A stretch of DNA of 64,000 bases from an uncultured Planctomycetia bacterium. GTDB taxonomy: Bacteria; Omnitrophota; Gorgyraeia; Tantalellales; Tantalellaceae. The position numbers and the translations under genes are program-made. How positions within the stretch are numbered: position 1 is the stretch's first letter; each line of letters starts with the position of its first letter. Where the stretch lies: positions 13,953-77,952 of the forward strand of contig CAZMEZ010000002.1 in NCBI GenBank assembly GCA_964565425.1, written 5' to 3'. Below are positions 32,977 through 62,002 of this stretch, piece by piece. The notes under the pieces are model-generated. The model saw only the letters and a program-made list of their open reading frames with translations, did not search any database and was not told where the DNA came from.

Positions 32977-33120
32977 TGCGGGAGAGCGTCATATATTCAG
33001 GGAAAGGCGTACAGTTAAAGGAGGGTGGTGTGTTAGGAACAAAAGTTATCGACTGATAGGAAGCGTCCCTGCCCCGGGCTCTGCCAAGCGGCCCGCGGGT
33101 GGGGGCGTTTTCTCCGAGCG

Positions 33121-33158
33121 AGGCCCGGAAGTCATGACTCCGGGCCTCGGTCTTTTTA
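33121..33158 (+). terminator. Rho-independent terminator after ORF1
   Basis: Perfect 10-bp stem gaggcccgga (33,121-33,130) pairing with tccgggcctc (33,140-33,149), 9-nt loop, followed by ggtcttttt. Confidence 0.75.
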
Positions 33159-33209
33159 GCCCCCCGTAAGGCCGGGTGGTGAGAAGGCGGGGGTAGCTGT
33201 GTTAAATAT

Positions 33210-33224
33210 TAAAAAGTAAGTTTT
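33210..33224 (+). promoter_or_regulatory. Conserved 15-nt element TAAAAAGTAAGTTTT, copy 1, 29 nt upstream of the -10 box
   Basis: Identical 15-mer recurs at 51,138-51,152 upstream of ORF3, with 29 and 30 nt spacing to a TATAAT hexamer. Confidence 0.5.
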
Positions 33225-33230
33225 GATGAA

Positions 33231-33259
33231 TTGACGAGGATGGTCACAAATAGTATAAT
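33231..33259 (+). promoter_or_regulatory. Sigma-70-type promoter for ORF2: TTGACG, 17-bp spacer, TATAAT
   Basis: TTGACG at 33,231-33,236 and TATAAT at 33,254-33,259, about 64 nt upstream of the ATG at 33,324. Confidence 0.6.
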
Positions 33260-33323
33260 ATATCAACAGCGACAAGTAAGACCATAAAAAAGCCAGAATA
33301 AGCTATTATCCGGGGGGATAAGG

Positions 33324-36300
33324 ATGCTGAGAGGCAGCAAACTTTTTAAGATAATATCCATAATAGTACTTGTCATTTTCGTCCATGAACAGGTCGGCTG
33401 GACTCAGGACGGACGGCCTGTATGGACTGCTTTTCGTGCTTCAAGTGAAATAACCCCCAGAGATCTGCCGCGAGGCATAAATATCCCTCATGATATCGGC
33501 GACGTCAGCGAAACCGTGATGAACGGTTCAGGCGAAGTCGTGATAAATATCCAGGACGCGCACGCGTCCTTATCTTCCCAGTATTCCATAGTTAACATCC
33601 TCGACAACCTCGTATCCAATTATGACGTTAGGCTCATAGCTCTCGAGGGAGCCGAAGGGGTAGTCGACACTTCGCTCCTCAGGACCTTCCCCGATAAAAG
33701 GGTAAGGAAAGAGACGGCGGAGTTCCTTATGAAAGAGGGCAGGATGAGCGCCGGCGAGTTCTTTGACGCGACGCGCGACGAGAACGATGTGGTCCTCTGC
33801 GGCGTGGAAGATGACGCGCTATATAACAGGAACGTCGAGAGCTTCCGCGGGATAATGGACCGGAGGGCGGCGTATTCCGAAGAGGTCGATAAACTCCTGG
33901 CGCAACTTGACGCCTTGTCCGCGAAGGTTTTTTCTCCCGGACTCAAGACCCTGGAAGAGAAGTCCAGGCTGCACAGGGAAGGCCGAATGAGTTTTTCGGA
34001 TTACTGGGAGAACGTGCGCCCGGTCGCCGAGAAAGAAGGTGTTTCCTTCGAAGGCCTCGCGAATACCGGTAAGTTGCTTCGCGCCATAGCGCTGGAAAAG
34101 GACATAAACTTCGCGCGCGCGAACCTCGAAAGAAAACAGCTTATCGACGCTCTCAGCGAGGATATGGACCGCACGGATATAGAGGACCTGGTCCTCAAGT
34201 CGCTCCTTTTCAAGGAGAACAGGATATCACAGGCCGATTATCACGCCCATTTGAGCCGGCTTGCCGCCTCTTACGGCGTCGGCATGGAAGGCTACGGGAA
34301 CCTGATGGCCTTCACGGAATACGTCACATTGTACGAAAGCATAGACATAATGGCTCTTTTCAGTGAGTTCTCCGCTCTGGAAGAGAGGATCCGCGAGGCG
34401 CTTTACCGTAACGGTGACGAGCGTGAACTTCACGGCTGGATAAGGCTCGTCCGGATGGTCGGGAACCTTTATAACGTGGAACTCTCGAACGACGACTGCG
34501 CGTACATAATGAGCCGCAGGAAAGATTGCGACGGCGCCGGGTGCGCCGGTTTCATAAAAAGGGCATGCCTTAAATACGGCGTTCCCATAGAAGGGGGGTA
34601 TGACGCCGGGCATGTATTCTCCGGCGTGGATGAGGCCCTGGGATTCTACGAGGTCGCCGAATCCAGGAATAACGCTCTCCTCGCGAACACGCTGAAGCGC
34701 ATGAAGGCGGAAGGAAAACACGTGGCCGCGCTAATAACGGGCGGGTACCACACGCGGGGCCTCACCGAGCTCATGCGCAAGAACAAGCTTTCTTACCTCG
34801 TTGTCGTTCCCAGGTTCGAAAAGGACAAAGAAAGGCCGTATATCGCCATACTCACCAACAAGAAAAAACCTTACCAGGAACTTCTTGAATCCGGTAAATA
34901 CCAGCTGGCCGTGAGGGCATATTTCGACGGTATGGACGAGGATAAATTCATCGAAACGGCCATATACGCGCTTTCGAACGTGGTCACGGGCGGCGGCGAC
35001 TGGCGTTACGAAGCGGAAAGATGGTTCCGCGAGTATTCGCGCGAATACGAACGAAGGAAAGGCATTTCGGAAAAAAGGATAGAAGGAAGTCTCTCACCGG
35101 GCGAATTCGCCAGGATACTCGGAGTGGGAGACTACGCGGGTCAAGGGCAGCTAAGGATCGAAACCTGGGAAAACACCGTTGTGGTGGCCAGGATCAAGGA
35201 TGACCAGGTCTCTTATTTCCGTTTGGACCGTGGCGAAGGCGGCGTACTGGAATCCCCCCGGGTACTGTCGCCTAGCCAGGGTCGCAAGATCCTCGCTGCC
35301 CTTGACCGTGCTAAAGCGGAGATAGAAGAGGAGCGGACGGCAGGGCGCGCCGTTGACCTCGAAAAAAAGATGGAAGGCCTGGCAAGGGCGATCAGGGAAG
35401 CGTCGGAAAAGAAAGACGTCACGCTTGCCGAAAAGCTCATGGAAGATAACGGCCTCCTCTACAGGGTCGTGGACAGGTTCGTTCACGCGGACGAGGTGAA
35501 GCCGGAAGATGTGGTCAAAAAACTGAAGGCCGACCCCGGCGTGTCGCTCGCGAAAAACTGGCGCGCCGACGAAGAGAACAGGCAGGCCGTGGCCGTGTTC
35601 GTGAACAGGGTCATCGCGGCCAGAGAAGGCGTCCGGGCGATAATCGACAAACTCACGTCGGACAGGGATTTAGCCGAAACCATAGCATTGTATTTTGTGG
35701 CGCTGAAGAAGGAGATAACCCCGGAAGGCGTCGCGACAGCCTTGCAATACAAGTTAAATGACCACCTGATGCGTGAGAGAGAAAGAATACCGTCGCTGGA
35801 GGATGCCATCGCAAGGTTCACGGAAACCGTTAAGAAGGTTTACGGGCCCGTAGAAGAAGCCAGGGACCGGTTCAGCCGCTGGCGGATCGCCGACAAGGGC
35901 AGGTATTCCGGCACGGTCTCCAACCTGGAGCTTGCGCTGGGCGATATCGCTTGTGCCGGAGGAAAGGATCTCGAGGAGTATGTTGAAAGGTTCAACGGAA
36001 CGGAGGAAAGACCCGTTCGCGCCCTGGAACTTGGTTCGGGACTCTTCTGCCCGATCTCCGGTTATCTTACAGGGAGCATCGAACAGGACATGTTCGTAAA
36101 ACATGAAGGCGGGTTCAGGAACATGGAGGTCGCGGCTCTCGATCCGCGGCAGGATACGGACGAGGAGCTGGGATTGTACCGCGGCAACGCCCTCAAGATG
36201 GATATGTTCGCCGACGGGGAATTCGACTATATATTCGCGTTCCAGGTCTTTAATGTCGAATGTTTTACGCAGTATTTTCCCGTGAACGTGAAGTTCTGGG

Positions 36301-39300
36301 AAGAGAATTTTCCGAAGGAGATGCTGAGCGAGGGGAAGTATTACAGGAAGATAGCGAAAGAACTATTCAGGGTCATGAAGCCCGGCGGCGAGATATACAT
36401 GAACGTGGGGCTGGCGGAACCCAACCTCCTTCTCAACCGTGTCCTGAGGGAAGAGGGTTTCGAGTGCGAATACTCTGACAATAGAGGGACGAACTGGGTC
36501 TTCACGAAACCGTCCGGTAAGGAGACGCCGCTCGAAAGGCGCAGGGAGCTGACGAGGAGGGCGATAACACGCGTGGCGGGGTTTCTGGGGCGGAAGATAG
36601 CCGTTCTGGAAAAATATTTCGCGGAACTGCCGAGAGAAGGAGATCTCGATGAAGAACAAGCCGAAGCGGCGGAGATGCTGCTTGATGCGTGCTGGGATAT
36701 CGTTAAGGGTGTAAGGCAAGATGATCTGTACGTTCCTTATTCCCCGGGACTGCAGCGTCTTCTCGGATGGGGGTCCCCCGGACACATATACGATATACCC
36801 GGGAACATGATATCCCTTACGGCTTATCTCCAGAACATAGTTCATGGCAAAACCGGGGAGATAGCTCCTAATGTTTACGCAGCCATGGCCGGGGAGATAT
36901 CAAATTTGAAATATGCGTTGAACGCTTTGAAGGGGACCCGTTCGGAAGATATTTATTTCTTCAAGCCCGCAGGTTATGACAAGGAATTCGTTAACATCAG
37001 GAACTGGGAAAAATCCCCGCCGCTCCATTCGAAAGAATGGGTGGCGTATCTTTTCGCGACCGGGCGGGAGGACTTGCTCAAGCGGGTCGAATTCAACGAG
37101 GAAGCCAAGAAAGCGTTCGACAAGTATGTGCTTTCGGCTAACGTTTTCAGCGACATGGTCCGCTCCGGCGGACTTGAGCCCGCCGAGGGCGAAGAAGAGA
37201 TGTTCGAGAGGGTGAAGGGATTCCTGGCGGAGACGGACCCGCGAAGGATTGAAGAGACGGGTAACTTCGCGAGGGTCAGGATAGCCCGGCGTCTTTCGGA
37301 GGAACGGGGAACGGGTATAATGCCTTTCGCCGGACCCTCATGGAAAAAAACGCCGCTTTACGCGGCCGCCGCCGGCGCGGTCCTCTCACTTGTTTCCGTT
37401 CTCGCGTTCGACGCCAACGTAGCGGGGGCGATAGCGGCGGGTTTCGCCGCGCTCACGGGTCTTTACGCCCTGGGTTTCTGGATATGGAAGGACCTCATAC
37501 TCGGCCGGGTGAAAAGCGGTAAACTTCAGTCGGCCTTCTACGGGCGCGGCGGGAACGAGACCATTTACGCTCCAGATAAGGTCGTCCGGGAGAGAGTAGC
37601 CGTCCTTTTCAACGAGCTTTCCAGGTCGCTCGCGGGAGGACGCGCGAGCAAAGGGTCACGCGCCCTTGCCGGCACGCGGATCGACGTCGAAAAAGGCCCG
37701 GCCGAGGCCGTCCTGGTGGACGAAAATTCCCCTAAAGAGGTCAAAGAAGCGATCGGGGACGATTACGCGGCTTTCGACAAGGGCAAGAACACGCTTTATG
37801 TCCTGGGGACGCTCGCGCGCGCTCCGGACTGGGTGCTCGCGACAGTACTCGCCCACGAAGCCGCGCATCATTTCACTAAGAGCGAGTTACGGGCAAACCT
37901 CTTTACCGCCCTTAATTTCAGGAAGGCCGTAAGGACCGCGCGCGGCCTGAGCTATACCCCGGAAGATTACCGGATGTACTCCTTATCAAGGGTCCCGGAC
38001 GTCAAGGCGGACGCCCTCCGGAAGAGCCGGCTCGCTGTCCTCCTGGCGGAAAGGATGAAGAAAGAGGGATATCCCGTAACGGATGACGATATAGCGCTTG
38101 TCGGCCGGGTTTTCCTGGTCCATGCCGTGGGCGGAGAGCGATATCCCGGGATAACACTGAAGATACTTGGGGACGCGAATGCCGATATCACGGACGAAGC
38201 AAAACAACTTGTAAGGTTCCGTCATTCCTATGCCGCTTTTACCGATCATCTTGCGCGTGCCGGCGAGGAAGAAATTTCCGTGGATGTCCTGGGTCGCGTT
38301 AATGAGCTTTTGCCCATGATCAGGCTGGTGGACGTTTTTGATGACGGGCAGAACAAATTAAAACGCGAAAAGCCCGGCAAGCAGCCGGAAAATTTCATCG
38401 AGGCGCTGAACTCGCTGGAGGAGACCTTTGCCGAAGAGGGGATAACCGCCAGGGGCGCCCTGAACGTTTTCAGGAATATGATGGGCGAAGAGGACCGGCG
38501 CATCCTGAACATAGCCGCGGAAGCCCGGAGGTCCAACGATATCCTTGTCTCGGACCACGTGCTCATGGATACCATGACGGGAGGAGAGAGGCTGCTCAAG
38601 ATGCGGGGAGGGCTCGATAGGGACCGGGGCGAGGGTGAATATGCCGTCATGACCTTCAGGATGGGGCTCCCGGAAGACCTGCGCAGGCAGATCAAACATT
38701 ATCTCGAGAACAACGGGTTTGACGTGGTGAGCGCCGGCATGACGAGCCGTCATATAGGAATGGACGAGGTGCTCAGGCGGTGGGGAACTGCCGGAGAGAT
38801 CAGAGAGACGCTCGACCGGATCGAAGCGGACGGAGTAAATATTCTCGAGGGTATGATAAACCTTGTCGCGGGGGATGGGGCGGGATTCGAAAAATGGGTC
38901 CGCAAGATCGAACAGGAACATCCCGAGACCGGATCCGTAAAGATGCTCAGGTTCTACATGAACGCGTTTGACCGCGGCATAGAAACGGTAATAATAAGGG
39001 CCCGCGTTCCGAGGGAAAGGCTTATCGAGGAATTCAACGCCCCCGCGAAGGCCGCCGGCATGAAGTTCCAGGATTTCTTCAGGCAGTTCGTCGCAGGGCA
39101 TGAAGACGCTTTTAAGGCCAAAGCGGGGACCCTGAGGGCGGAATTCATGGAACCGGAGCTTCGCCCGAGCGGCAAGCTGGCCGGCATATACAGGATGGGG
39201 GAAAAGCTTATCCCGCGCGAAAAGACAGGCCTTGCCAACGGTATAGACTGCCCGGCGTACTCCGAACTTCCCGGGAACCTTAAAGAGTATATTGAAGTCC

Positions 39301-42300
39301 CTTTCAGGGCCCCGATCATTTCGTCGGTTCTTGCCAACGGTATCAGCGGCGGCCTTCTTTTGGCGGCATACGTGTTCTTCAAGGGGCCGGTGTTGAAAGG
39401 GATATCCTTCATATCTAAGGCATTCTTTGCCGCGGTCATCATAACACTTTTCGCGGTATATTCACCGTCGAGGCTCCGGGCCCAGGAGACGACAGCGGAT
39501 AAAGGCAAGGACAGGACATCCGCTACGGATAAAGGCGACAAGCCCGGCAAAAAAGAGACCGATGGCGGAGAAGGCGACGGGAAAAAGACCGATGAGAAGA
39601 TCAAAAAAGCCGCGGCCGAGGAACTGCCGCTCAGGGACAGGAAAAAGCAAAGAGAGGTCCCGGCCGGAACACTGGTAAAAGCCGGTGATCTTATAGACGT
39701 TATCCTGGACTTTACCGACGCGGAGAGGGCTCCGGAATACCGCGGGAACGTCAAGTTTCTCCTGCTCATGACGATGATGGTCGAGAGCGACCAGTTCGCG
39801 GCGCGCCGGCAGTACAACGGGGGCCCCGCGCGGGGCCTGGCCCAGTTCGAACCGCCGACGGCGGCGGACGTCCGCGATTATATCAAGAGAAAGTCCGCGA
39901 ACAAGAAGTTCATTGAGGCCGTAAAAGGGGTTTTGGAGATCGGCTGGGAAGACAATATCGCGGCGATGTCCGGTGGAGATATCCTGGCAGCGATAAATGA
40001 AAGGATGACGGGCTTGGATGAGAGGATAAAAGCGGCCCAAAAGGAGAACGACGGGAAGAAGGCCGTCGGGATATCAAGGGAAAAAATAGACCTGGAAAAA
40101 GCCGTTGAGGGCGCGCTCGGCAGGGACTGGCAGGAAGAGCTTGCCGCTCTGGCGGGTGAAACAGCGCTGGAGAGGATACGCGCCCGGCTGGCGCAGCTGG
40201 AGAGGGAGATCGAAGCCGCCAAAGAAAAGGACGACAGAAAGACCGCGTCCGAGAAGGCGGAAGAAAAAACGGTTCTTGAAAGGGAAATGGAAAGGATCTT
40301 CCGGATAAGCTGGGAGGACAATCTTCTGGCGATGTCCCTGGAGGATATACGGAAAAAGATAGACGCGAGGGTCGCCGCTCTCACCGAAGAGATAACCGCC
40401 GCCGAGAAAGCGGGCGACAGGAAAAAGGCGGGAGAGAAGAAAAAGGAAAGAGCGGCCCTGCAAAGCATACCCGCCACAAGAGGGTTCAAGACCTTTATCA
40501 GAAATTACAGGTTCAGGATAATGATGGTGAAAACGCTCGGTGCCGACTGGAGCGCCGTATGCACTATGAGCGGCGACGAACTCGGCCGGCGCCTTGTCGC
40601 GAGCGACTTCTTTACGGCCCTCATGAGCCGGATCAATTACGCGAGGAGGCCCCAGCTCGTTCCTTCAAGAAAGGACCGGAAGGCCGTCTGGCGGTATTAC
40701 CTGGACACGTGGAGGCCGGGTAAGCCGGTTTCGCTTGAAAAGTTCCTGCAGCTTGCCGCGATCGTAGATAAAAGCGGCGTAATAGCGGGGAAAAAGGAAG
40801 AAGCCAAACCCGCCGCCGGAGTGCCCGGGGAAAAGAAAGAAGCCGGAAAAGAAGCCGTTACGGAAGCCGGACACGTTCCCGGGAAGAAGCCGGCGGCCGA
40901 GGAGATAAAGATAGCCGAACCGACTGCGCCTGTCGCTCCTCCGGAAGAAGCCCTGGAGGCGGCAGAAAAGCCGGCAAAAGAAGTCCCGGTGCCGGAGGTG
41001 GGAGCGAACATATTCATCCGCCTGTTGGCCGTTTTCGGAGGCGTTTTGGCTGTGATCGCCGGATTTTTCCTTGGAAGGTGGGCCGGCAGGCCGCCCCTCG
41101 CCAAACTCAAGAGATTCGCAAAACGGGCGAAACCCCGAAAAGTGCTGGAGATAGATCTCGGTAAGGACCTCCTGCAGGATAAGGAAATGATGAAGGTGCT
41201 GGCCCGTTCCGGCCACGAGATATCTATCGGCAGGATACCGAACACTTACCGGTATATCTTCCAGAAATGGGAAGAAGACGTCGCCTCCGGTGTTTTTGTG
41301 AAGTCCCTGGGACGGGAATATCCCGATTACAGGTTCGAGGGTCATACCCATTCGCCGGCCAGGACCCAGCTGGAATGGAACAGGATAAATATCCCCAGCT
41401 ACACGGATCTCATGTTCGGGATCTCCGGCCAATGGAGTTACATAATATCCGAAAAGGGCCTGACCTGGTTCAGGGCCGACAGGGGCCTTCTCGAAGTGTT
41501 CCGTGAACAATACGACGCTTTTATCCGGAAAGTTGAAACCGGGGATATGACGCCCGGGGAGGTCGTGACCGCGATGCGCGAGCGGTTCGAGGTGGACGTG
41601 GAGTTCGAGGAAATGGACCTTTCCTCCGGAGTAGCCCGCGGCCCCGCCGCGGCTATGCCTCTGAAAGAACTTATCGCGCCGGATGTGCCGTTCGATGATT
41701 ATGCCGTCAAGCTCGCTCCGGTCGCGGAGGAGATCCTTTTCTTCGCCGTGCCCATGGCCCTGGCGTATCTCGCCCTCGGGATCACCAGCATCTGGACGCT
41801 CGCGTTCATGGCCGCCATGCGCGGCGCGTTCTTCATGCTGCACCCCGAAAAGCGCGACATCATGACGATGAGCGTGACGGATATGGTATCGCTCATCGAT
41901 CCTTCGTACGGCGAACTCAGGAAACACGTTTATGCCGACTGGAAGTTCGTCCGGGCCCTGGCGAAGGGCATGGGGATAAGGGAGGACAGCGAGGAGATGA
42001 AGATGCTTCGCGTGATATCGATGGTCCACGATATGGGAGGCGTTCTGGGGCTCAAGCACGATGAGGATATCGAAAAAGAACTTATCGTGAAAGCGGCGCT
42101 CCACGGTATCGATCACCGGGGAATGGACCCGAACGACGTGGAAGCGGAACTTCTGAGAAAAGGCGTGAAACTCACAAAAGAGGAAAAACGGTTCCTCCCC
42201 AATATTGATCATCCCGCCAATTCATTAAGGATGCTCGATAAGATGGGGATCGCCGTACCGCCTATCGTAAGAGGAATAGTATTAAGACACATGGATGCCC

Positions 42301-45300
42301 CGTCGGAGGAAGAGCTCAGGACCTGGACGGAACAGGAAAGGCGTCTCTTTGCGTGTTTCGTGATAGCCGATGTCTTCGAAACGGGTAACAATTACTACAA
42401 ACAGGCGGGAGGATACTATAAGCACGAAGGCAAATTCGAGTCTATCGAAGATACGTTGGCTTTCATAAAAAGCAAGCGGTTCGATAACAGGCCGTCGATA
42501 AGCCGGTATATCGAAGCGGCGGAGAACGTGCTTTCTTCGGAAGCCATGGCGGAAGCGATACGCTTCAGCCGGACGCCGCTAAGCGGAACGGAATTCGCGA
42601 AAAAGATCATGCCGCGAGGCCCGCCCGCGAGCCGGATAGTGCCTTTCAGCGTAGCCGCGATGGGGGCAGTCATACCGGCTATCCCGGTCATGTTCCCCGC
42701 GATCGCCGCCGCGCCCGGGCTGTTCATACTGGCGGGTTCGATCTGCGTGGTGATGTTCCATTCCTTCGGCAACATCATCGCCGTCATAAAAGGCGTCATG
42801 CCGGCGGCGATAAAAAAGAAAAAGAGATCCGAAGACCTTGAGTGGATAGACCTATACGCTGCCAAATTACAGGCCGAGGGATCTCCCGGTTTCGTTCATG
42901 GGGCGGTCAACAGCGAAGAGGATATAAGGACGATAACGACTATAAGCGGAACGCCGGTCGATGAAGTCAACCGCCGAGCGCAGCCCGGGAATTACTCTAT
43001 GAGCGGGTTCGCGGAGGATTTTATCGAACAACTGGTATCCGACAACGGGCTCGTCCGCGGTTTGGGCACTAACCATAAGAAATTGGCGGATCTGTTGAAA
43101 AGAGCCGCAGGAAAAATAAAAGACGGCGGTGAAGCGACCTTCAAGCATAAAGGCATGCGGTTCGGGATCAGACGGATACCAACAAAGGGAAGCCAGAATT
43201 CCATTTTTGCAGATTATGGTTGGAGCTGCAGTTATCGTCTTAGAAACTTGGACCAGGGGACCAGTATACTGTTCGCCCCTAATTCCGTCGCCGAAATAGA
43301 ACGACTGGGTTTTTACGAGGCCGGGACGATAAACGGCAAGGAGAACAAGTATGCCGTTGATCCCGAGCTTCTCTGGAGGATGTTCAACGATGTCGGCTAT
43401 CGAGTTTCGGAAAAAACGGAGGAAGAAGCGCTGCGGGACCAGGCGGAAGCCATAAAAGAAAAGGAGGGATGGGATTCCATAGAGGTCTACGAAGTTGACG
43501 AACTCAGGGCCGAATACCCGTATATAGTAAGGGAAGCGCCAGCCGTGTCCCGCGGGAAAGTTCCCTTCTATGCCGAGATGGAAGAAGGTTATTACGGAGA
43601 GCCGCCCGTACGTTTCGCGTATGAGGTCAGAAAGAAAGGGCCCTGGACGGCCGTAGTAAGGGTGGAGATATATGAAAGGGACGCGGTCGAAGAAGATACG
43701 GGAATGCGGGCGAGTTTCTACAGGCACAGCCTGCATCTTTTTAGGGGCAGAGAAGATCTGTTTTTGGACGAGTCGTATTCCCTGGACAGTCTCGGGGAGA
43801 AATACGGGACCAATATAGCCGAGATCCTGCAAAAGTCGGGTTTTCCCTTCCGAATCGATATCGGTCCCGGAGAAAAATGGTTCTACGACGAGATGATGAA
43901 AAAGGATGTCGGAACGTTGATGCGTCTCGGTGTCCTGTGTTCGCTTCGGTCGGGCCTTTATACGGATACGCTTCGGGACAGTATGAAGATAAAGCTGACC
44001 AGGGATATGTCGGACTCGAGAGGCTTATTGTTCCGGTATTATATCGTCCCCGTTGAAAATGACGGGACCATGGAATTCGTGGCTTTGGAGCGGCAGAGAG
44101 ACCTGATCTTTCGGGCTCTGTCTGAAAAGACGGGTGGAATGCCGACAGCCCCAGGCACAATATTTCTCTTAAAGGAACTTATCGCTCAGCGCATGTCCTT
44201 CGCCGAATATGCCGCCAAAGTCGCCCCGTGGGTGGAAGAAGCGGTCTTCCTGGCCCTGCCGATGATCATATCGCATTTCGCGTTCGGCCTGGCAAGTTTC
44301 TGGACGGTAGTATTCATGGCCTTATCGCGCGCCGTATTTTTCTTCCTGCACGAAGGCGCGAGGCCCCATGCGCCACCGGCGCTTTGGGAGACGCCTTTAA
44401 AAGTGGCGATAACGGGTTTTCTCGTATCTTTGATGCCCGTGGCCATATTCTCGGCATTAACTTCATCCTTTAACCTTTATCCTTTAACCTTTATCCTGGC
44501 GGCCACATTCCTCTCCGGCCTGATACACCTCCGCGAGAACATCGCCGCGCTCAAGAAAGGCGTCATGCCGGCGGCGATACCGGCGGGCGAAGAAGCGCCT
44601 GACCCCTGGCGGGATCTGACCCCGGACGCGCGCGAGATGTTTACCAATATCGCAAGCAAGGAGTTCTTCCTTAAAGACGCCGAAAGAGGGGAGCTGACGG
44701 CGGAGAGATACCAGCGGGATCACGATGAGGAAGACCCCGAAAGGATACTGGCGCTCTTCGAAGAGCTCGCCGGTAAAGGATATTTCGGTATCACGAAGAG
44801 CGACGACGGCAAGACCAGGTACGGTCTGTCGGAAAAGGGCGGCTCCATGGTCCCGTTGGCCGTCGAAGACATGATAAAGGTATGGATCACGGGTATGAAG
44901 GAGAACGACCTGGCCTGGAGACGCGATCACATAAGGGACCCGGGTTTCGGTTCCATGTTCAGGACGGCGCCGGCATACAAACAGCCCGATCCCGGGAGAA
45001 TGACCCTGTTCGGAAAATACTCCGATGAGGTGCTCGACGTGATCATGGAGCAGGTCAAGGAAGAGGTTAAGCTGTACGAGACGGGCAGGGGGAATGACAC
45101 GGCGTTAAGCGCTCCGCTCGGCGTCATGGAGGGTCTTCTCGAAAAGTGCGGCGATATGCGCCGGACCGATCTGGTCGAGAAGATCGTGGAATACCTGATG
45201 ATGGCGCCTTACTCCGAGAACGGGAGGGTCAGGGCGGCTTTCCAGACGTTCTACATGCATATAGTGGCGATAGATCCCGAACGGGCAAGGACTTTTCTTT

Positions 45301-48300
45301 TCTATCTCATGACGCATTTCGCCGAATTCGGGGACGCCATAAGGGAAACGGACAATCCGGTATTCGGTGTAATGGATTTCCTGCACAGCGCGGGAGACGA
45401 GAACTTCTATTATTTCCTGAGGAGGATATCCGCGTACACTTTCCGGGACCATTCCGGACAGGTCAATGTCGGGCCGAACCATCCGCTGAGATGCCGCACG
45501 AGGTGCGGCACCTACGGTCCGGACCTAGAGGGGGTCATAAGGGATTCCATACACAATAACCTCGGCGTTTACGTGCTGGGCCTCCTGGAAAGGTACCTGG
45601 AATTCTGCGAGACGGGCGATCACGGGATACTCGCCGACGAGAACTACCCGGTGGATGTCTTCAAGAACGACGAATTCCCGTCCCGGGACGCGGTCTTCCC
45701 GGAAGACACCGTTAAACTGTACGCGGTCCCCGAACCGGAGGATACGTATCCATCGAACAACAGGGGCATTATCAGAGAGATATTCGCCCAGCTGGAAGGC
45801 GACCTCGGGCGCCGAATAGGAGCCAGAGGGGAAACAAAGTGGGAAAAACTGAGGAACATTACCGACGAGCAGCTGCAGCTTGTATACGATGCCGTTAACG
45901 CGAAACTGGGGACCAGCATGCAGGCGCAATATTCGGGTTATTCCTTTTCAGGATACATATACGCTTATCGCGAGCTTTCCAGAAGGTACAAGAGAGTGGC
46001 CAGCATAGATACTCTCACCGGCAATCTCTTCGGCGTGGCCGCAAGACACAGGATCGCCAATGAAGCCATAGCCGGCCAGCGCTGGGCCGAAGACGACCAC
46101 CCGGTTTACGAGGCGATAAGAGGCAGCGATCCGATCGCGGCCCTGAAAACGATAACGGGATCGAAAAAGAAGATACGCGACAAGGTTTTCAGCGGGACAC
46201 TGGCGTACGACCGGTACGAGGTCATGGAACAGTTCGAACAGGAATGGGGCAGGGATGACGTGGGCAACGCTTACGGGGGCGCCTGGGTAAGGGACGATCT
46301 CGTAGGTTTATACATGGCTGATAATGTCCTCACCATGGTGCAGAACATGCACATAGAGAACATATCGAAGGAATTCATGGAAATAGACGGGTCGAATGTC
46401 GTAAAGGCCCTGGAATATCTCAGTGTGCTGGCCGAATTGAGTTACACGGAGGGCCTTATCTCCAGGTCCTTCAAGGACCATATCGTCACGCTGCTGGACC
46501 AGAAGGGCCTCGATGTTTCGGTGGCCAGGGACGTCATAAATTTCATGCAGCAGGAATTCGTCGAGATAAGGAATTATATCGTCCAGAACGCCGAGAACTA
46601 TATACACGCCATGCTCGATGCCGAGGGAATATACGGTAAAAAGAGAGAGGAAGAATTCGATAGGAGGCTAAACGGCATTTTGAACAGCGACAGGGTGTTC
46701 CGTTCCGCCAGGGCGCTTATAACCAGGCTCGGCAAGTACGCCGAAACGCGGGAAGGAACGTTCATGGAAGCGGCTACCGCCGAACCGTTCGAAGAAGAGC
46801 CCAAACTCTTCGGGGGTACGGTCCCGGCGGAGACCGTAGAAAAAACCGTTTCGGCCGGAAGGTATAAACTTTCGGCTAAAGGGCTTGAGCTGGCCAGGAC
46901 GTCTCTGGAAGGCATCCCCATACCCGAAGGTGTGATAATCCCGGCGACGGTATCCGATAAAGATACGGGCGGACTTGCCGAAAAAGGCCTGAAGACGCTG
47001 CAGGATCACCTGGACGGGGTCGAAGGCCTGAGGGGCATGAAGTTCGGTTCCGCCGAAAACCCCCTTGTGGTTTCGGTGAGGTCGGGAGCCTACATAGTGA
47101 TGCCCGGACAGATGCCCACGATAGCGAATGTCGGACTTTGCCGTGACACCATGGACGGGTTCACCGCCCGGCTGGTAAAACGCGGCGTGGATCCCCGTGA
47201 CGCGCGGTGGACGGCATGGGATTCGTATTCAAGGTTCCTGCAGAGTTACGCCGTTTCCGTTCTCGGCATAAGCGAGCAGCATTTTGACGCCCGCAGGGAA
47301 AAAATGCTGGAGGACGGGGGTGTGACCGATGTGCGTGAACTTCCGCTTGATAAGATGAAGAGCATGGCCGGCGGGTTCGAAAGGATCATTACCGACATAG
47401 CCGGTGAAGATAAACTGCCGGTGACCGCCGGGGAGCAGTTCAAGTATTGCGTGGAAGCCGTCAAAAAATCGTGGGCCGAATCGATCGATTACCGCGATAA
47501 CGTGGGGATAAAAGGCAAATGGCCGGGAACGGCAGTGATAATACAGCGCATGGTCTTCGGCAACATAAACAAGGATTCGGGCGCGGGCGTCATAAACTCG
47601 CGCATGGTGAACGTGCGAAAACTGGGCCTGGAGGGCGATTTCCTGTGGTTCGGACAGGGGGACGATATCGCGCAGCACAGGGCCGAGGACCTGGTCCAGA
47701 TACAGGATGTCCCGGATGATACGCCATGGAAGAAAGACCTTGAGAAATACGCCGAACTTATCGAAACGTCCCTGGGGACACTGGCCGAGATAGAATTCAC
47801 CGTGGAGCTGGGCAAGGTATACATACTCCAGGTCAGGGACGCTTATGTCGATATAAGGGCTTCGGATTACCTGTTCATTCCTTCAGAAGGAGATCTCCTG
47901 GCCCGCCGGCAGCGGGTCATACCGGCTTCCGGCGGAGCTTACAGGGGTATGGTATATATTCTCCACGGACGCGCGCCCGATATGAGAGAGATAGACCGCA
48001 TGTATAAAAGATCCAGGAAAGCCGGCGGCGACGGCGTGATAATAGTGGCGGACGACCTCGGCCCGGAACAGCTCGGTAAGCTTATAGTCAGGGACGAGGA
48101 AGGGCGCCTTAAGATAGGCGGTCTGATAACGAGGCGCGGAGGGAAACTTTCGCACGCCGGCGATATAGCCAGGAACCATCGCATGGCCGCGATAGCCAAC
48201 GTCAAGGATATAAAGTTCCCGAAGCATGTCAGGAAGAAAAGGAGTTTTATTATAAACGACAGGCGTGTCCAGGAAGGCGAAATGCTTTCCATTTCCGGGA

Positions 48301-51002: not shown

Positions 51003-51087
51003 GTTAGAGAAACAGCATGCAGCGTGCAGCGTGCAGCGGACGGCGGACAGGGTTTGTTAAGGTATAAAATAGTTGGAAAGGGGCATG

Positions 51088-51116
51088 TTGACATATAGCC
51101 CTATTTGCGATATACT
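51088..51116 (+). promoter_or_regulatory. Sigma-70-type promoter upstream of ORF3: TTGACA, 17-bp spacer, TATACT
   Basis: TTGACA at 51,088-51,093 and TATACT at 51,111-51,116. A second TATAAT at 51,183-51,188 lies 30 nt downstream of the conserved 15-mer. Confidence 0.5.
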
Positions 51117-51137
51117 TAAGTATGAATTGTTAGCGTG

Positions 51138-51152
51138 TAAAAAGTAAGTTTT
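51138..51152 (+). promoter_or_regulatory. Conserved 15-nt element TAAAAAGTAAGTTTT, copy 2, 30 nt upstream of TATAAT at 51,183
   Basis: Identical to 33,210-33,224. Confidence 0.5.
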
Positions 51153-51224
51153 ACGCAGGGCACGTGGAGTGTGTCTTGTGTATATAATAATAAGAACAAA
51201 TTTGGAGAGAGAAGGAGAAAAATC

Positions 51225-54200
51225 ATGAATAAGCCCAAAAGATCCCCAATCTTTAAGGCAGTAAGCCTTTTTCTGGTGCTGGCGTTCTCATTATACAATG
51301 TGAGCTTCGCCGTCACGCAGGACAATATCGGCAAACCGGATACGGTCGATGTGACCGGGCCTCTTTCGGTAGAGGACATCGGCATAGCGATCGATTGCGG
51401 GACGATAAAGTCCAGGTTCAACGGTGACGCGGACAAGGTCATCGTTCACATCCAGGACGCGCACTGTAACTACGAAGCGCAGTCCAACATAAACAGGATG
51501 CTGGACCAGATCACTAAGGAATGCGGGATAGGCATCATATCGGTCGAGGGCGCGGAGGGGATCGTCGACACGACATGGTTCAGGGCATTTCCGGACGCCG
51601 AGATACGCAAGGAAGTGGCGACTTACTTCATGAAAAAAGGCGAGATAACGGGCGCCGAATTTTTCTCCATAACCTCCGATTTCCGTGGAACCATCTTCGG
51701 GGCGGAGACCAGGGACTACTACGTGAGGAACCTCAGGGCCTTCACGGACGTCTACCCCTACAAGGAGACCATCGAGAACTACTTCACCAACGTGCGGACG
51801 GTAGCCAACCGGCTGAAATCCGTGGTATATCCCGCTCAGCTCAGGGAACTGGACCAGAAGATAAGGGCTTTCGACGATAAGGATATAGAGCTCAGCGACT
51901 ACGCGGAATACCTGAACAAGATGACGCGGAAATACCGCGTGGACCTCAAGGATTGCGGGAACTTCGATAAGCTCACGCAAACGCTGGAATACGAGAACAA
52001 GATAGACTTCGATACCGTCGACCAGGAAAGGAGCGAATACATAGACGTTATCAGCAAGAAGCTGTCCAAGGAGGACATGACGGAACTGGTGACGCAGAGT
52101 ATCAGGTTCAAGAAGGGTCACATAAAAGCCGTTGACTTTTATTCCTATCTCAGGGACCTCGCGAAGGATAACAGCGTCGATATGGTCCATGAATACCCGA
52201 ACCTCTTCTATTACTATATTTACACCAAGCTTTACGACGGGATCGACAACGAGGGACTTTTCAGGGAGATAGACCTTGCGGAGATCCGCTTAAAGGACAA
52301 ACTCTTCAAGGACGAGACGCAGAGGAAACTGGATAAGTATTCCCGCATGGTCGACATGTTCGTCGACCTCACTAACATAGAGCTTACGAACGAGGATTAC
52401 GACACTTTCAAGGGTTATTCCAAGGAATTCTCTCTCGAGGACACGCTGGAGTTCTTCAAGGGGCTGGTCGACAAGTATAACCTGAACTACGCTATCGACG
52501 GACTTCCTGTCCAGATCGGCGAGAACATCCCCAAAATGGTGGATTTTTACGAGATCGCCATAAAGAGGGACAATGCCCTGATAGACAACACGCTGGATCA
52601 GATGAAGAAAGAGAAACAGGACAGGTGCGTCCTTATAGCCGGCGGTTTTCACACCAGGGGCATAAAGGACATACTCGAGAAGAAAGGCGTTTCTTACGTG
52701 GTCGTCACGCCGAAGATAACGAAGAACGTGGACACCCCGTATATCAAGGTGTTGACCAACCAGAGGACGTCGCTCGAGGACATAATCACCGAAAGCGCGG
52801 TCGTCCCCGGTATAGGGATAACCGCTTCGCGCGAGGAGATAGTCCGGCCGAAAGGCGACATGCTGAGCCCGCTCGCGAGGGTGGCGTACACGATACCCAT
52901 GTATCTCAACAAGCCCGGGGACCTGAAGGAACTTTCCGACGCGGTGGGCGCGGTTCAGGGGAGATCCCTCGAGGACGCCGCGGTGGAGTCTTACAAGGAA
53001 ATGATAGCCGCTCTCGTAAGGGGCTGGCTCATGAAGGTAAGAGAGAACGCCGCCCCGGAGGTATGGGCGACGGCCATAGAGAACTGGCATCTCCTTCTGG
53101 GCGCGTATCTCAAGAAATACGAGGAAGAAGCCGCGAAACAGGGCGTCCAGGTCATAGAAGGGCTCCGCGTGCCGGCGGCGATGCTTACGGCGGAACAGGC
53201 GGCGGCGGTAAGCCAGGAGTTCAGGGCTATATTCGAGGAGGAGGTCAAGAGAAGCAAGACCCCCGGCGCCGAAGCCATAAGGCTGGACGACAAGAACGAT
53301 CTTTATGAATCGCTTACGCCCGAGGAGGCCGCGGCGCTCGATGAGGTAATAGCGGGGATAATGTCGAAGATAGATACTACCCGCGAAAGCCGTTTGGCCC
53401 ACACGACGGAGATAATGGTCGAAAACGTCGACGCAAATACGGGCAAGACCGTTAAAAAAGCCATGGAAGTCTGGAAACTCCCGGGCTTCAGGGAAGCCAT
53501 AGAGAAATATAATGCCGCGCACGAAGCGCGGATACCGCTTGATGTGCGAGTGCACCCGGGCACCGGCAGGGGGACCTGGACGCGCATGTACATCGACGAG
53601 AGGGATTTCGCGGCGCTGGACGAAACGCAGGCGCAACGCTTGGCAAATCACGAATATTATCATATACTAAACCCTGATAAGAGCGAGAAGGACGCGATCG
53701 ATGTCCAAAAGGACGACCTCATGGACGTGCGTCTCGCTTTCATAGAAGCGGAAAAAGAAAGACTGAGACTCAAGGCCGAAGAGGAGAAGAGAGTGAAGGA
53801 AGCGCTTCTCACCAATTCGAAAGCTATGGCGGAAGCCGCCGACAAGGGCGTAGGTCCCGACATCGTCATGATCGTAAGCTCCACCGACGAGCAGGCCGAT
53901 TTCTGGCAGAAACGCCTTACCGGCAAGGATGCCGTTCACGGCTCGGGCGAGATCGTGAAGACCGGCGCCGTCGTTCTTTCCGTGCCGGAATCCAACTGGA
54001 AGGGCGGGGCCGGGAACGGTCTGGGGACGCTGAACGGTTTTGTCCAGGCCGCGAGAAAAGCGCGCGACCTGAAACTTATAGATGTCCCGGACGACGCCCC
54101 GATAGAGGAACTTATAAGGGTTTTCATGTTTTATATCAGGGGCAAGAGCTCCTTCATGTTCCACACGGCGGGTAAAGGCACGCGCACCGCGCCGCTTCCC

Positions 54201-57200
54201 GGGGCGGAAGTTAACTCAAAACCCAACATCAAACTTCCCAAGATGGTCGAGGTGGAAGGGAAACGGCAACCGGTCACCATCCTTGAATCGGTCCTAATGG
54301 AGACGAGCATATACGCTCCTTCAAGGAAGAACCGCCTGAGCGTTTTCTGGGGCGACCAGGTGATAGTAAACGAGGAGAACATAGATTTCGGGAAAAGGCA
54401 TCACGTGGAGATATTCGGGCAGAAGGTGCCGCTGGACAGGGAGATCGAGGCGTACGGTGTCCTTATCCCCGGCGAAGAAGGCGATTGCAAACAGAGGGAG
54501 AAACTCGCGCTTGACGACGTGAAGAAGGTGCTTCCCGCCGGCAGCGATGAAGTATACAAGAGCATAGGTTCTTTCACCGTTTCACTCGGTTTCCTGAACG
54601 CTTTGATGAGCATGAAAGAGCACATGGAAGCGCTCAAGAAAGCCGAAGGCAGCCTCAATACCGACCCGGACTGGTGGCAGCCGCTTACCTCTGCGCGTAA
54701 CGAATATATCGAGATGCAGGGCAAGAAAGGCGTCGACGCGAAAAAGGCCGGGGCCCAGTGGGACAGGATGAACAAGTTCTGGGAAGATTTCGAAGGCAGC
54801 GGCGAATACCTGGGAGAGGCCCTGGACCGCAAGATAGGGTTCAACGACGTAGGCCCCAATTCCTACTGGTGGGATTACGGCCAGAATAAATTCTACCTCA
54901 GGAACATGCAGATACTGACCGAGGATTCCATGGAAGGCGAGGCCGCCAGGAACTTCTTCGGCGTCGAGGAAGGCAAGTGGGTGGACGCCTCTTCCGATAC
55001 CGGTGAAGCCGTCATCGAGAACTCGATAGTCCAGAACTCCGCCATAAAGAAGGGGAGCCTCAAGAACTGCGTCGTTATAGACTGCACGCTGGACGAGGTC
55101 TACGCGGAGAACGCCGTTATCATAGGTAGTACTATATTAAAACTTAACGCGGACGGGGCTTTGTGCTACAATGTCGTGGACCATGACGTAAGCCTCCGCG
55201 AAGGTCAGCTTCTTGCGAACATATTCCATCCCGAGCTCGGTCGCTTCGCCATGCGCACCGACACGACCAGGGACGGCCAGACCGATTGGAACGGTAAGGT
55301 ATACGTGTATGATAACCAGTACACCTATCCCCAGGTTTCCGATCTGATGAAGGGCGTCAAGATGGAGGATGTCGAGCAGGCCAGGCAAAACGCGGTAGCG
55401 AATCTCAGGACGACCGACCGCATGAGCGGCGCGGAACTCGCGCAGAGATTAAGCGATGCCAGGGGCATCAGCATCGAGTCGGCGCGCGAGCTTGTGGCCC
55501 GCAGGATGCTTGTATTCGGGGACATCCAGTATTTTTACGACACCACTTATATGGATACATTCGGCGTATCAAAAGACAAGGCAGAACAGGAAGTCGACGA
55601 GGTCGGAATGGCCGGGAAGGGCGTGACGCAGGTTGAGTATAACACTTCGCTTAACGCGGACAACATGGCCGGCCTGGTTGCCAGGCTGGAATCCGCCGGC
55701 GTCCTTAATGCCGTGCGGAAAAAGCAGCTTATCGCGGCTTTGACCTACCGGAAGGTGGAAGACGTGACCGACGAAGACCTCCAGAAATACGTTCGCGCGT
55801 CGGATCTCACCGATCTTAATTTCCTTTTTGACGTTCTTAAGGAGACCGACGCCCTGTACGGGATAGATCTCGCTGAGCTCGGTATAGCCGAAAAGACTCA
55901 AATGGTGGACGTGAGCTTGCCGGAACAAGCCAGGGAAGAAGTCCTGAAGAAGTCTCTTAAAGAAGGCCTCAGGTTCGGTACAAGCGGCCTCAGAGATTTC
56001 GTAGAGAACATGCCCGACGTCGAAGTTTATATCAACACGCGCGGTTTTGTTAAATTCCTCAAGGAAAGAGGCGAGATCGACGGGAAGAACAACGTGATCG
56101 GCCTTGCCGGCGACCTCAGGGCGAGTACGCCCAGGATAATAGCGGCCGTCGCGAAGGCCATAGAGGACGAGGGTTGCAGGGTGGATTTCCAGGGGCTTGT
56201 CCCCAGCCCGACGATCGCGTACTATGCGATGCAGAAAGACATGCCCAGCATCATGGTCACCGGCAGCCACATACCCGAGGTCATGAACGGCATAAAGTTC
56301 ACCAGGAAAAGCGGTGAGGTGCTTAAGAGCGACGAGGACCCGATAAACGAACATGTTAAGGAAGCAAGGGCCGAAGAGTACGCCAAAAACTGGGATAAAT
56401 CCCTTTTCAACGGGCGCGGCATGTTCAACGTCAAACGTCCGGCTCCGGGAGCGAAGGCGGACGCGGAAACGGTTTACGTGCAAAGATATCTCGATGTTTT
56501 TCCGAAAGACGCCCTTAAGGGCAAGAAGGTGGTTTTCTACCAGCACAAGGCTGTAGGAAGAGATATAACCGCGGGAGTGTTCGCCGCGCTCGGCGCGACG
56601 GTCATTATAGAAGGAAGAAGCGAAAAGTTCGTCCCGATAGATACGGAAAAGGTCCCGGATTCCACGAGGGCCCTTTTCAGGGAATGGGCGAAAAAGCACG
56701 ATCCCGATCTTATCATATTCACCGACGGCGATTCGGACAGGCCGGGGCTGGTGGACGAGACCGGTGAATACCTTACCGGCGACTGTCTCGGCGCTCTTGT
56801 ATCGATGTACCTGAAGCCGCAGGCCGTGGGCCTTCCGGTGAGCGCCAATGATGCGGTGGTCGAAGCCCTTAAGGCGTCGGGGATAAAGGTTACTCCTACA
56901 AGGATAGGTTCACCGTATGTTATCGCGGCGATGAACGGTTATCTTGCCGCCGATCCGGACATGAAGGTCGCGGGCTGGGAATCGAACGGAGGGTATCTCC
57001 TGGGGAGCGACTGGACTATAAACGGAAAAACGCTCAAGGCGTTACCGACGAGAGACGCCATCCTGCCGCTGCTGGTAACGGCTATCTTCGCCAAGGAGCA
57101 GGGCGTGAAGATGTCGGAGCTCATAGCGTCCAGATTGCCGGCAAGATACGTCGTTTCGGACGCGGTCAACAACAAGATGGAAGGATGCGAGGCCTATACT

Positions 57201-59968: not shown

Positions 59969-60048
59969 ATATCAGGGCTATATAAAACTTTTATATAATG
60001 GTATTTACGTTAATATAAAAGTTCGTTAAAACGTTATATTACATATAG

Positions 60049-60077
60049 TTGACAGAACAGTTGAATTTTTGTAAAAT
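60049..60077 (+). promoter_or_regulatory. Promoter for the ABC permease operon: TTGACA, 17-bp spacer, TAAAAT
   Basis: TTGACA at 60,049-60,054 and TAAAAT at 60,072-60,077 in an AT-rich spacer, about 55 nt upstream of the ATG at 60,132 (SD taaggtgg). Confidence 0.55.
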
Positions 60078-61040: not shown

Positions 61041-61068
61041 TACAGCTGTAAGCTTTAAGCTGTAAGCT

Positions 61069-61953
61069 TTGAGATGTAAGTCAAATATCATGGAAAAAGG
61101 GATAATGACACAGGGAATAGGTATCAGGAAGGATCTGTTCACGATAAAGACCTTCATATATATCTTTCTCGTGGCCGGAGCGGTTACGATGGTGATCCCG
61201 TATCTCTGGATGTTCGTAACGTCAATAAAGCCGCTGGAAGAGATACAATCTTATCCGCCCGGTTTTATAGTAAAGAATCCCACGCTGGAGCCGTACAGGG
61301 ACCTTTTCAGGATGATACCCATGATGCGGTATCTTTTTAACAGTCTTTTCGTGGCCGGGTCCGTAACGCTTTTCAACGTCTTCGCTACGTCATTGGCGGG
61401 TTACGCCTTCGCGAAACACGAGTTCTGGGGCAGGGATAAGCTGTTCTTTATATTTCTGGGATCCCTCATGATACCGTGGCAGGTCAACATAATTCCGGGG
61501 TTCGTTATAGTGAAGAAGCTCGGATGGCTGAACACCTACAGGGGGCTCATAATACCATCCATGGCGTGGTGCGCTTTCGGTATATTCCTTAGCCGGCAAT
61601 ATATATACAGTATTCCCGATGATCTTATCGACGCGGCCAGGATAGACGGATGCAGCGAGTTCATGATATACCGCAAAGTGATATTGCCGATCATAAAACC
61701 CGTTCTCGCGACGCTCGCGATCTTTACTTTTTTGCAGCAATGGAACAACTTTGTATGGCCGTTGGTGATCATCCATACCAGCGAGATGAGGACGATCCCG
61801 CTGGCGCTCGCGGTCCTGAGCGGACAGTTCGGCGTCAAGTTCAACATGATCATGGCGGGAGCGGTGATAGCGACATTGCCGATGATCGTGGTTTATATCT
61901 TATTTCAGAAATATATTATAAAGGGTGTCGCGTTAACGTGGCTTAAGGGGTGA
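61069..61953 (+). CDS. Carbohydrate ABC transporter permease, MalG/UgpE family. Start ambiguous: ATGs at 61,069, 61,090 and 61,105
   Basis: EAA loop DDLIDAARIDGCSEFMIYRKVILPIIKPVLATLAIFTF and typical MalG topology. Follows permease 1 after 28 bp. Confidence 0.85.
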   Translation: MRCKSNIMEKGIMTQGIGIRKDLFTIKTFIYIFLVAGAVTMVIPYLWMFVTSIKPLEEIQSYPPGFIVKNPTLEPYRDLFRMIPMMRYLFNSLFVAGSVTLFNVFATSLAGYAFAKHEFWGRDKLFFIFLGSLMIPWQVNIIPGFVIVKKLGWLNTYRGLIIPSMAWCAFGIFLSRQYIYSIPDDLIDAARIDGCSEFMIYRKVILPIIKPVLATLAIFTFLQQWNNFVWPLVIIHTSEMRTIPLALAVLSGQFGVKFNMIMAGAVIATLPMIVVYILFQKYIIKGVALTWLKG

Positions 61954-62002
61954 CGAGTGACGGGTGGCGCGTGACGGGTTACTGTAAAATAGAAAGGGTA
62001 AA

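Follow-up and report, generated by a model that had tools for sequence, protein, structure and literature searches.

A strand-specific sequence box at predicted promoters of giant and other genes in Omnitrophota

We analysed a stretch of 64,000 nt from an Omnitrophota contig (the window), in which three giant genes, the open reading frames (ORFs) ORF1, ORF2 and ORF3, stand in tandem on the + strand. A sequence-only reading of this stretch had drawn attention to a 15-mer, TAAAAAGTAAGTTTT, that precedes both ORF2 and ORF3. We find that the shared 15-mer is real and that, judged by its conservation in related genomes, it is the core of a putative strand-specific promoter box of ~25 bp. The predicted layout of the full arrangement places copy 1 of the box at -66 to -46, the core promoter next, and copy 2 at +7 to +31, counted from the predicted transcription start site (TSS). 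The box marks a restricted class of promoters, being neither specific to giant genes nor generic. Omnitrophota carry some of the largest genes known, and to our knowledge nothing is known about how these genes are expressed. The published accounts consulted leave promoters and upstream motifs unmentioned, and none of the top-ranked full-text matches in the literature dealt with Omnitrophota promoters.

The 15-mer lies at 33210-33224 and at 51138-51152, both times on the + strand and identical in sequence as had been claimed, and it has no further match in the 64 kb on either strand even with up to three mismatches. It is the longest word (15 nt) that the intergenic regions before ORF2 and ORF3 have in common. 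The pertinent chance test sets these two regions against each other: none of 3000 dinucleotide-preserving shuffles of the pair reached a shared word of 15 nt (the maximum of 14 was seen once), confirming that the 15-mer is not shared by chance. A shuffle test on the whole window is weak, as 18 of 100 shuffles give at least two matches at three or fewer mismatches.

Both intergenic regions contain two same-strand copies of a longer box, R-TTAA-R-N4-AAAAWAG-YW-AG. The 15-mer before ORF2 belongs to copy 1, and the 15-mer before ORF3 belongs to copy 2 of the TTGACA-17-TATACT promoter that lies upstream of it. The true counterpart of the ORF2 15-mer is thus the copy at 51056-51076, and that of the ORF3 15-mer the copy at 33276-33296. 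The sequence-only reading had taken the two 15-mers as positionally equivalent and likened their position to that of an activator site, an UP element or the -35 of an alternative sigma factor. Equivalence does not hold, since the ORF3 copy lies downstream of the -10 of a conserved promoter. An activator-like or UP-like position fits the ORF2 copy (-56 to -42, directly 5' of a conserved -35), and an alternative-sigma -35 is unlikely because a canonical -35 comes 10 bp further downstream. The same reading was right about the TTGACG between 15-mer and TATAAT before ORF2 and about the complete promoter further upstream before ORF3. Each of these core promoters is an 11/12 match and the sole promoter-like site of its region, and both have the make-up of a sigma-70-type promoter, with a near-TTGACA -35 and a near-TATAAT -10 set 16-18 nt apart.

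Table 1. Positions of box copies, predicted promoter elements, genes and other features (in the window unless a locus is named). Scores are from a position weight matrix (PWM) described in the text; positions relative to the TSS are predicted. NTD, N-terminal domain.
Feature	Position	Strand	Details
ORF2 copy 1	33201..33224	+	GTTAA 33201-33205, core TAAAAAGTAAG 33210-33220, then TTTT; contains first 15-mer; predicted -65 to -42; PWM 15.0 bits at 33198; core ends 10 nt before -35
ORF2 sigma-70-type core promoter	33231..33259	+	TTGACG (33231-33236), 17-nt spacer, TATAAT (33254-33259, 29 nt after first 15-mer); predicted TSS ~33266
ORF2 copy 2	33276..33296	+	GTAAG-accat-AAAAAAGCCAG; in predicted 5' leader, ~+11 to +31; PWM 14.2 bits at 33274; 76 nt after copy 1
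ORF3 copy 1	51056..51076	+	GTTAAG-gtat-AAAATAGTTGG; ~-67 to -47; top PWM score of the window, 19.7 bits at 51054; core ends 11 nt before -35
ORF3 sigma-70-type core promoter	51088..51116	+	TTGACA (51088-51093), 17-nt spacer, TATACT (51111-51116); predicted TSS ~51123
ORF3 copy 2	51129..51152	+	GTTAG-cgtg-TAAAAAGTAAG, then TTTT; contains second 15-mer; predicted +7 to +30; PWM 11.5 bits at 51126; 72 nt after copy 1
TATAAT hexamer	51183..51188	+	30 nt after second 15-mer; GCACGT/GGCACG at 17-18 nt upstream
ORF1	runs off the 5' end of the window	+	>10,981 aa
ORF2	33324..51002	+	giant gene, 5892 aa; conserved N-terminal leader and ~500-aa NTD
ORF3	51225..59897	+	large gene, 2890 aa from ATG 51225; NTD paralogue of ORF2
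Tandem terminator-like hairpins	33058..33157	+	33058-33113; 33116-33152, then U-run; after ORF1 stop
N-terminal leader, examples	33324-33450, 51225-51330; L087, L094, L126, L155, L161, L174, L184, others		
Small ORF family B (MREVVFKNLTS...RKKDI...TERRCFYFI...)	L206 5926-6297, L207 5910-6281, L212 279-650, L110 6990-7358		
Period-7 repeats	51013-51038, 61044-61080, 61950-61976		CAGCGTG x3.7, AGCTGTA x5.3, GTGACGA x3.9, respectively

Comparison with close relatives supports these assignments. Before L081, the closest ORF2 relative found (83% protein identity), the GTTAAATA block of copy 1 is kept at 8/8 positions and the 15-mer at 12/15, the -35 is identical and the -10 agrees at 5/6, and the spacer and start region have diverged. 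Copy 2 is identical at 24 of 25 positions, between flanks that have diverged. The closest ORF3-type relative fetched, L149 (75% protein identity), keeps both ORF3 box copies and the promoter, its copy 2 reading TAAAAAGTAAGATTT (14/15) at the same place, and copy 1, -35 and -10 are conserved in L149, L153 and L196 alike. In both regions, then, the hexamers are conserved while the spacer drifts (L081 for ORF2; L149, L153 and L196 for ORF3), as expected of sigma-70-type promoters. ORF1 is followed by two hairpins and a U-run, which implies that ORF2 has its own promoter; the fold of 33040-33165 reaches -71.4 kcal/mol (z = -5.9), none of 200 shuffles folds as well, and this terminator-like region is also kept in L081. 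ORF3 starts at ATG 51225, which has a ribosome-binding site (RBS), and the GTG at 51171 in the mechanical ORF list is a wrong start.

The box recurs across the phylum. Our sample comprised 80 loci from species-representative genomes that encode relatives of the NTD at the head of ORF2 and ORF3, together with L081. When the best sigma-70-like promoters before these genes are aligned by the -35, a common upstream box emerges, and the family arrangement (L001-L081) reads GTTAR, 4-5 nt, AAAAAAG, YWAG, 10±1 nt, TTGACA, 16-17 nt, TATACT. The core (two or fewer mismatches) ends 8-12 nt before the best -35 at 48 of 69 loci, the corresponding counts for three control offsets being 1, 0 and 1, and the gap from box to -35 is 10±1 nt for both 16- and 17-nt spacers between -35 and -10. 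The GTTAR block was not used in selecting sites, and its T is found in 47 of the 48; the G after the A tract, a column that was used for selection, is found in 40. The last four bases of the 15-mer (TTTT) are not conserved in the family, nor is the segment from -45 to -36, the 10 bp adjoining the -35 being mildly T-rich. In 81 independent metagenome hits, the unconstrained columns read R-TTAA-R-r-T-W-T-AAAAWAG-TT-AG-a-T-A-T-T, with G or A and never C before TTAA. Two direct half-sites of the GTTA(A)GATAT type, set 16 bp apart around an A6 tract, can be read in the box, and ATAT often follows it. Such base-specific conservation, G/C positions included, and a fixed orientation are what characterizes a regulon site.

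Using a PWM of 24 columns, built without the window and without L081 and applied at a cut-off of at least 10 bits, we scanned both strands of the window and found four sites, all on the + strand and two in each intergenic region. When the intergenic regions were shuffled, 97% of trials had no PWM hit, and 0 of 5000 shuffles gave three or more. The fetched loci hold 101 hits on the + strand versus 11 on the - strand, compared with 12-28 in all for local shuffles, and 79 of the 101 lie within 400 nt upstream of the gene.

To see which genes carry the box, metagenome contigs were scanned by DNA pattern alone (box, -35 and -10), and 120 stretches were returned. The downstream gene belongs to the NTD family in 18 of them and encodes another, mostly very large protein matching a model of the N-terminal leader in 14; two small ORF families of ~122 aa, A and B, account for 16 and 9, and tRNA genes for 2. 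A further 26 are other or unclassified, 22 lie on low-GC contigs and are probably from other taxa or chance hits, and in 13 the contig ends too soon. The leader model matches 14 of 65 non-NTD targets versus 4 of 256 control genes. Proteins encoded behind the box often share this leader, even where they are otherwise unrelated; it consists of basic residues followed by a hydrophobic segment with DI-x-WA-(Y/H/Q)-P or WAQGG at its end, and it may be a dedicated export or anchoring signal. Family B (122-123 aa) is the first gene of the cvpA-NIF3-dnaG-rpoD operon in Omnitrophota, and searches of Pfam, NCBIfam and PDB returned no significant relative of its protein. All 12 family B loci examined have the box at their promoter; nine of them were retrieved through the box pattern itself, and the unbiased count is 3/3. 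Rfam, run on 19 pattern-hit loci in which a downstream ORF is absent, distant or short, found one tRNA only.

A sample free of pattern bias was provided by 20-kb RpoD neighbourhoods from five Omnitrophota genomes, the loci on which strong housekeeping promoters were examined. The sole coupled box in these five neighbourhoods stands before the family B gene, in 3/3 genomes having that gene, and none stands before mraZ/dcw, csp, lepA or tRNA-synthetase genes. Signature peptides of ribosomal proteins, EF-Tu and chaperones, searched for in all fetched loci, gave no hit in contigs of the Omnitrophota-like kind. Among neighbouring genes, 9 of 256 have a PWM hit in the upstream gap, and of 34 other strong promoter-like sites two are coupled to a box. 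We therefore reject the box as a generic feature of Omnitrophota promoters on the strength of these neighbour controls and the RpoD loci, and we reject it as specific to giant genes because the DNA-pattern scan found the dnaG-rpoD operon, a small-ORF operon and leader-type large proteins. The box recurs in a limited set of promoters and is absent from most others, as a regulon site would be. The suggestion that the 15-mer links the giant genes survives in this form: the box is kept before homologous giant genes across Omnitrophota, but it is not confined to them. It follows the host phylum rather than the gene family, and three NTD homologues labelled Elusimicrobia have no box (0/3). Two Elusimicrobia-labelled homologues share a different upstream motif, TTACAAGTTnTTAAGGGG (L202 ~330-360, L204 ~2870-2900).

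Copy 2 has a characteristic place of its own. It begins 15-30 nt after the -10, and what comes next is usually an RBS and a start codon, not another -35/-10; its usual place is immediately 5' of the RBS, at 18-31 nt from the start codon. In 22 of 32 pairs of hits the two copies are 61-79 nt apart. An A5G word is present 10-45 nt after the -10 in 24 of 51 promoters versus 4 of 51 controls. Copy 2 accompanies 12 genes that are NTD-type or otherwise large (mostly leader-type), and it is missing at all 25 small-family promoters.

We tentatively favour, at a confidence short of probable, the prediction that the box is a docking site for a sequence-specific activator, with the second copy modulating transcription at very long genes. 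A DNA-binding activator conserved throughout the phylum would dock at copy 1 and, from this fixed position, contact RNA polymerase through the C-terminal domain of its alpha subunit (alpha-CTD) and/or sigma region 4, raising initiation. Copy 2 would be a second site for the same factor, modulating promoter escape or early elongation at very long genes, where it might act as a brake or as a loading point, and the box-bearing promoters would form one co-regulated class. An activator is favoured because G positions are conserved, C is excluded, the box has an internal repeat and a restricted promoter set, and it recurs in the transcribed region. A protein operator accounts for the conserved Gs, the internal direct repeat and the transcribed-region copy better than a plain A/T-rich UP element does.

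Several points weigh against an activator. The binding factor is hypothetical, and the TSSs (33266 and 51123) are predicted ones. Recognition by RNA polymerase itself would account equally well for an A6 tract at a fixed distance from the -35, for conservation throughout the phylum and for the presence of the box at the rpoD operon. Only about half of the giant-gene promoters have a copy 2, and the spacing between the copies varies by ~15 nt, so strict looping between them is unlikely. PWM counts within L001-L081 are partly circular, since these loci served to train the matrix; evidence independent of the training comes from the window, L081, the metagenome columns, the control offsets and the RpoD-anchored loci. 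The controls, finally, are ~1.4 Mb of fetched loci and not whole genomes.

A bolder version of the activator model, which we regard as rather unlikely, would make the box the operator of a dedicated Omnitrophota protein that switches on leader-bearing giant surface or secreted proteins together with dnaG-rpoD, and that also acts at +7 to +31, gating or equipping the polymerase at genes of 10-100 kb. The candidate factor would be the 123-aa family B protein.

Among known systems, the sequence suggests that the box is closest in its action to the class I activator sites or the UP elements of sigma-70 promoters. Class I activator sites (e.g. CRP at -61.5) and regulon operators are likewise sequence-specific, lie at a fixed distance upstream of the -35, occur at a limited set of promoters per genome and have conserved G/C positions. 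In class I systems a second site near the start can add repression, and the box also has a second copy there. However, class I sites are palindromes, whereas the box is asymmetric, with direct half-sites around its A6 tract. Its second copy lies on the same strand inside the initial transcribed region, and its gene set includes the operon of the housekeeping sigma factor, both unlike class I regulons.

The chief alternative, possible though on the whole doubtful, is that the box is instead a specialised UP element, in which alpha-CTDs bind copy 1 (A6G at about -56 to -50, TTAA one turn upstream) and would make a subset of sigma-70 promoters very strong with no extra factor, copy 2 being an unrelated A-rich leader feature or relic. 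Like UP elements such as that of E. coli rrnB P1 (consensus of Estrem et al. 1998/1999, cited in PMC4390567), the box is rich in A tracts, lies upstream of the -35, is orientation-dependent and serves a minority of promoters (9/256). Its coupling to the -35 is strict (10±1 bp, independent of spacer length), it offers two AT-rich minor-groove sites 10 bp apart, and it is conserved over the whole phylum and found before the rpoD operon and two tRNA genes. The AAAAAAG core also resembles the proximal-subsite consensus of E. coli, which Estrem et al. reportedly gave in 1999 as AAAAAARNR. This core is displaced by ~10 bp from the canonical position of the proximal subsite. A displaced alpha subsite, at -53 to -55, is documented for phage Mu Pm (PMC4390567). 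Against an UP element, the box lies about one helical turn further upstream (-66 to -46), and the segment from -45 to -36, where the proximal subsite is expected, is not conserved. The full E. coli consensus, NNAAAWWTWTTTTNNNAAANNN, is poorly matched by eye at its canonical position, 33207-33228 (TATTAAAAAGTAAGTTTTGATG) agreeing at few positions. An UP element also sits badly with the conserved Gs and the exclusion of C, and with the recurrence of the same bipartite box downstream of the start, within transcribed DNA, where no action of alpha-CTD is expected. Nor is the box found at three non-target tRNA-gene clusters (four tRNA genes) in Omnitrophota-like loci.

We consider it improbable that the box is a site for an architectural protein, IHF/HU-like or another bending protein, that shapes the promoter DNA to either side of the core. 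The asymmetry of the box, its strand specificity, its length of ~25 bp and its A6 tract would suit such a protein, the copies flank the polymerase footprint on both sides, and by eye TATAAAAAAGTTA matches 8 of the 9 specified positions of WATCAANNNNTTR. The one mismatch is at the C of the IHF consensus, which is among its most conserved positions; an IHF site was rejected since the family consensus has A in place of this core C. The ±1-bp lock to the -35 is moreover tighter than is usual for bending sites, and the case for such a protein is one of resemblance only.

A role at the RNA level seems similarly improbable. Copy 2, in the predicted leader, would here enhance translation, bind a protein or serve very long transcripts as a signal of the antitermination type, and copy 1 would merely look similar. 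Such a role would suit the place of copy 2 shortly before the start codon, its restriction to NTD-type or other large genes and its better conservation than copy 1 in the ORF2/L081 pair. In L017 (313-385) and L043 (~25-75), copy 2 is followed by its own inverted complement (GGATAAAAAA ... TTTTTTATCC), which could form a leader hairpin. However, copy 1 lies upstream of the -35, is therefore untranscribed from this promoter, and has the same bipartite sequence on the same strand. RNA folding of the two leaders showed nothing stable or unusual around the box (z = -0.24 for ORF2 and -1.98 for ORF3, but the ORF3 hairpin excludes the 15-mer). Lambda Q binding and pause sites and ops/RfaH resemble copy 2 in being elements within the first 30 nt transcribed, and copy 2 stands only before very long genes. 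The likeness is one of position only: the same box is also found upstream of the -35, no NusG paralogue or Q-like protein is linked to it, and a resemblance to ops was rejected after comparison by eye with the family consensus, the two having no sequence similarity.

Very improbable is the model of the sequence-only reading, in which the 15-mer, set 29-30 nt from a TATAAT, is the functional unit of two equivalent promoters. The spacing is as it was described, and the geometry before ORF3 (box, N10, hexamer, N18, TATAAT) equals that of copy 1, so an activator-dependent promoter lacking a -35 is conceivable in this genome. The spacing is not a conserved property, however, because L149 has no TATAAT 30 nt downstream. 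A promoter scan of the ORF3 region found no -35 partner for the TATAAT at 51183, and this hexamer is absent in L149, L153 and L196 although they keep copy 2; a conserved second ORF3 promoter was rejected on these grounds, and the hexamer is at best a lineage-specific secondary promoter without a -35. Copy 2 of ORF2 cannot precede a promoter because the ATG follows only 28 nt later. Family-wide, the box is tied to the -35 and not to the -10, and the TTTT of the 15-mer drifts. The window 15-mer alone reads AAAA-GTAAG-TTTT and so recalls the A4-N5-T4 boxes of ComK in Bacillus; we rejected this as a chance resemblance, since the T4 half is not conserved in the family, and there is no second AT-box at the ComK spacing. 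That the 15-mer has no function at all, as a chance match or the decaying remnant of a duplicated promoter, is barely credible: as paralogues, ORF2 and ORF3 do have upstream regions of common ancestry, but chance is excluded by the shuffles, neutral DNA would be randomised at 30% protein identity, and the box keeps its fixed position across dozens of distant genomes, also where the gene behind it is unrelated.

The motif is new, its two-copy layout around a core promoter is unusual and the phylum is uncultured; in principle, such a box is ordinary. It provides a first handle on how the largest known bacterial genes are expressed and connects these with other genes, already joining giant genes, other leader-bearing large proteins and a sigma-factor operon. 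It supplies predicted starts and promoters for the giant genes, can be used to find co-regulated genes in metagenome-assembled genomes (MAGs) and could be the bait for pulling down a binding factor. It also offers a concrete way of testing whether a special device near the promoter is required by very long genes.

The paralogy of ORF2 and ORF3 is apparent over their first 500 aa (30% identity, E = 4e-82). All ORF2 homologues with a source name come from Candidatus Omnitrophota/Omnitrophica MAGs except one labelled Planctomycetota, and the named ORF3 homologues are mostly from Omnitrophota, with a few labelled Elusimicrobiota or other taxa; by these homologues, Omnitrophota is the most probable source of the window. 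The NTD (33324-34823 and 51225-52724; ~500 aa) has invariant QD-H, EG and GG-H and other residues, and Pfam and NCBIfam searches with its 500 aa gave no match. It is common in Omnitrophota, where it heads giant genes and also makes up stand-alone proteins of ~520 aa. 3' of ORF3 lie a sugar ABC transporter and a glycosidase-like gene. The ABC-transporter promoter (60010-60077; TTGACA 60049, TAAAAT 60072) has no coupled box; a box-like GTTAAtatAAAAGTTCG stands upstream, 23 and not 10 nt from the -35, and scores below threshold.

Family A (MKYKTNIEITSDAANKDEAMEIVGDYLSGN..., ~122 aa, one central hydrophobic helix) stands behind the box in L117, L120, L122, L187 and 12 further loci, and is followed by genes for a response-regulator receiver, an FAD-linked oxidase, a Gly-zipper lipoprotein, an SNase and a PAC2 protein. 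In L055 (2215-2714), a gene for a 129-aa XRE-type helix-turn-helix protein lies 1.3 kb upstream of a giant gene and has its own box and promoter (TAAAAAGAAAGATTT, N6, TTGACA). Three short intergenic spacers of the window carry period-7 tandem repeats at or just after stop codons, each with a different unit, and heptamer repeats of the GGTTTCA type occupy a similar place in L016, just before the gene start.

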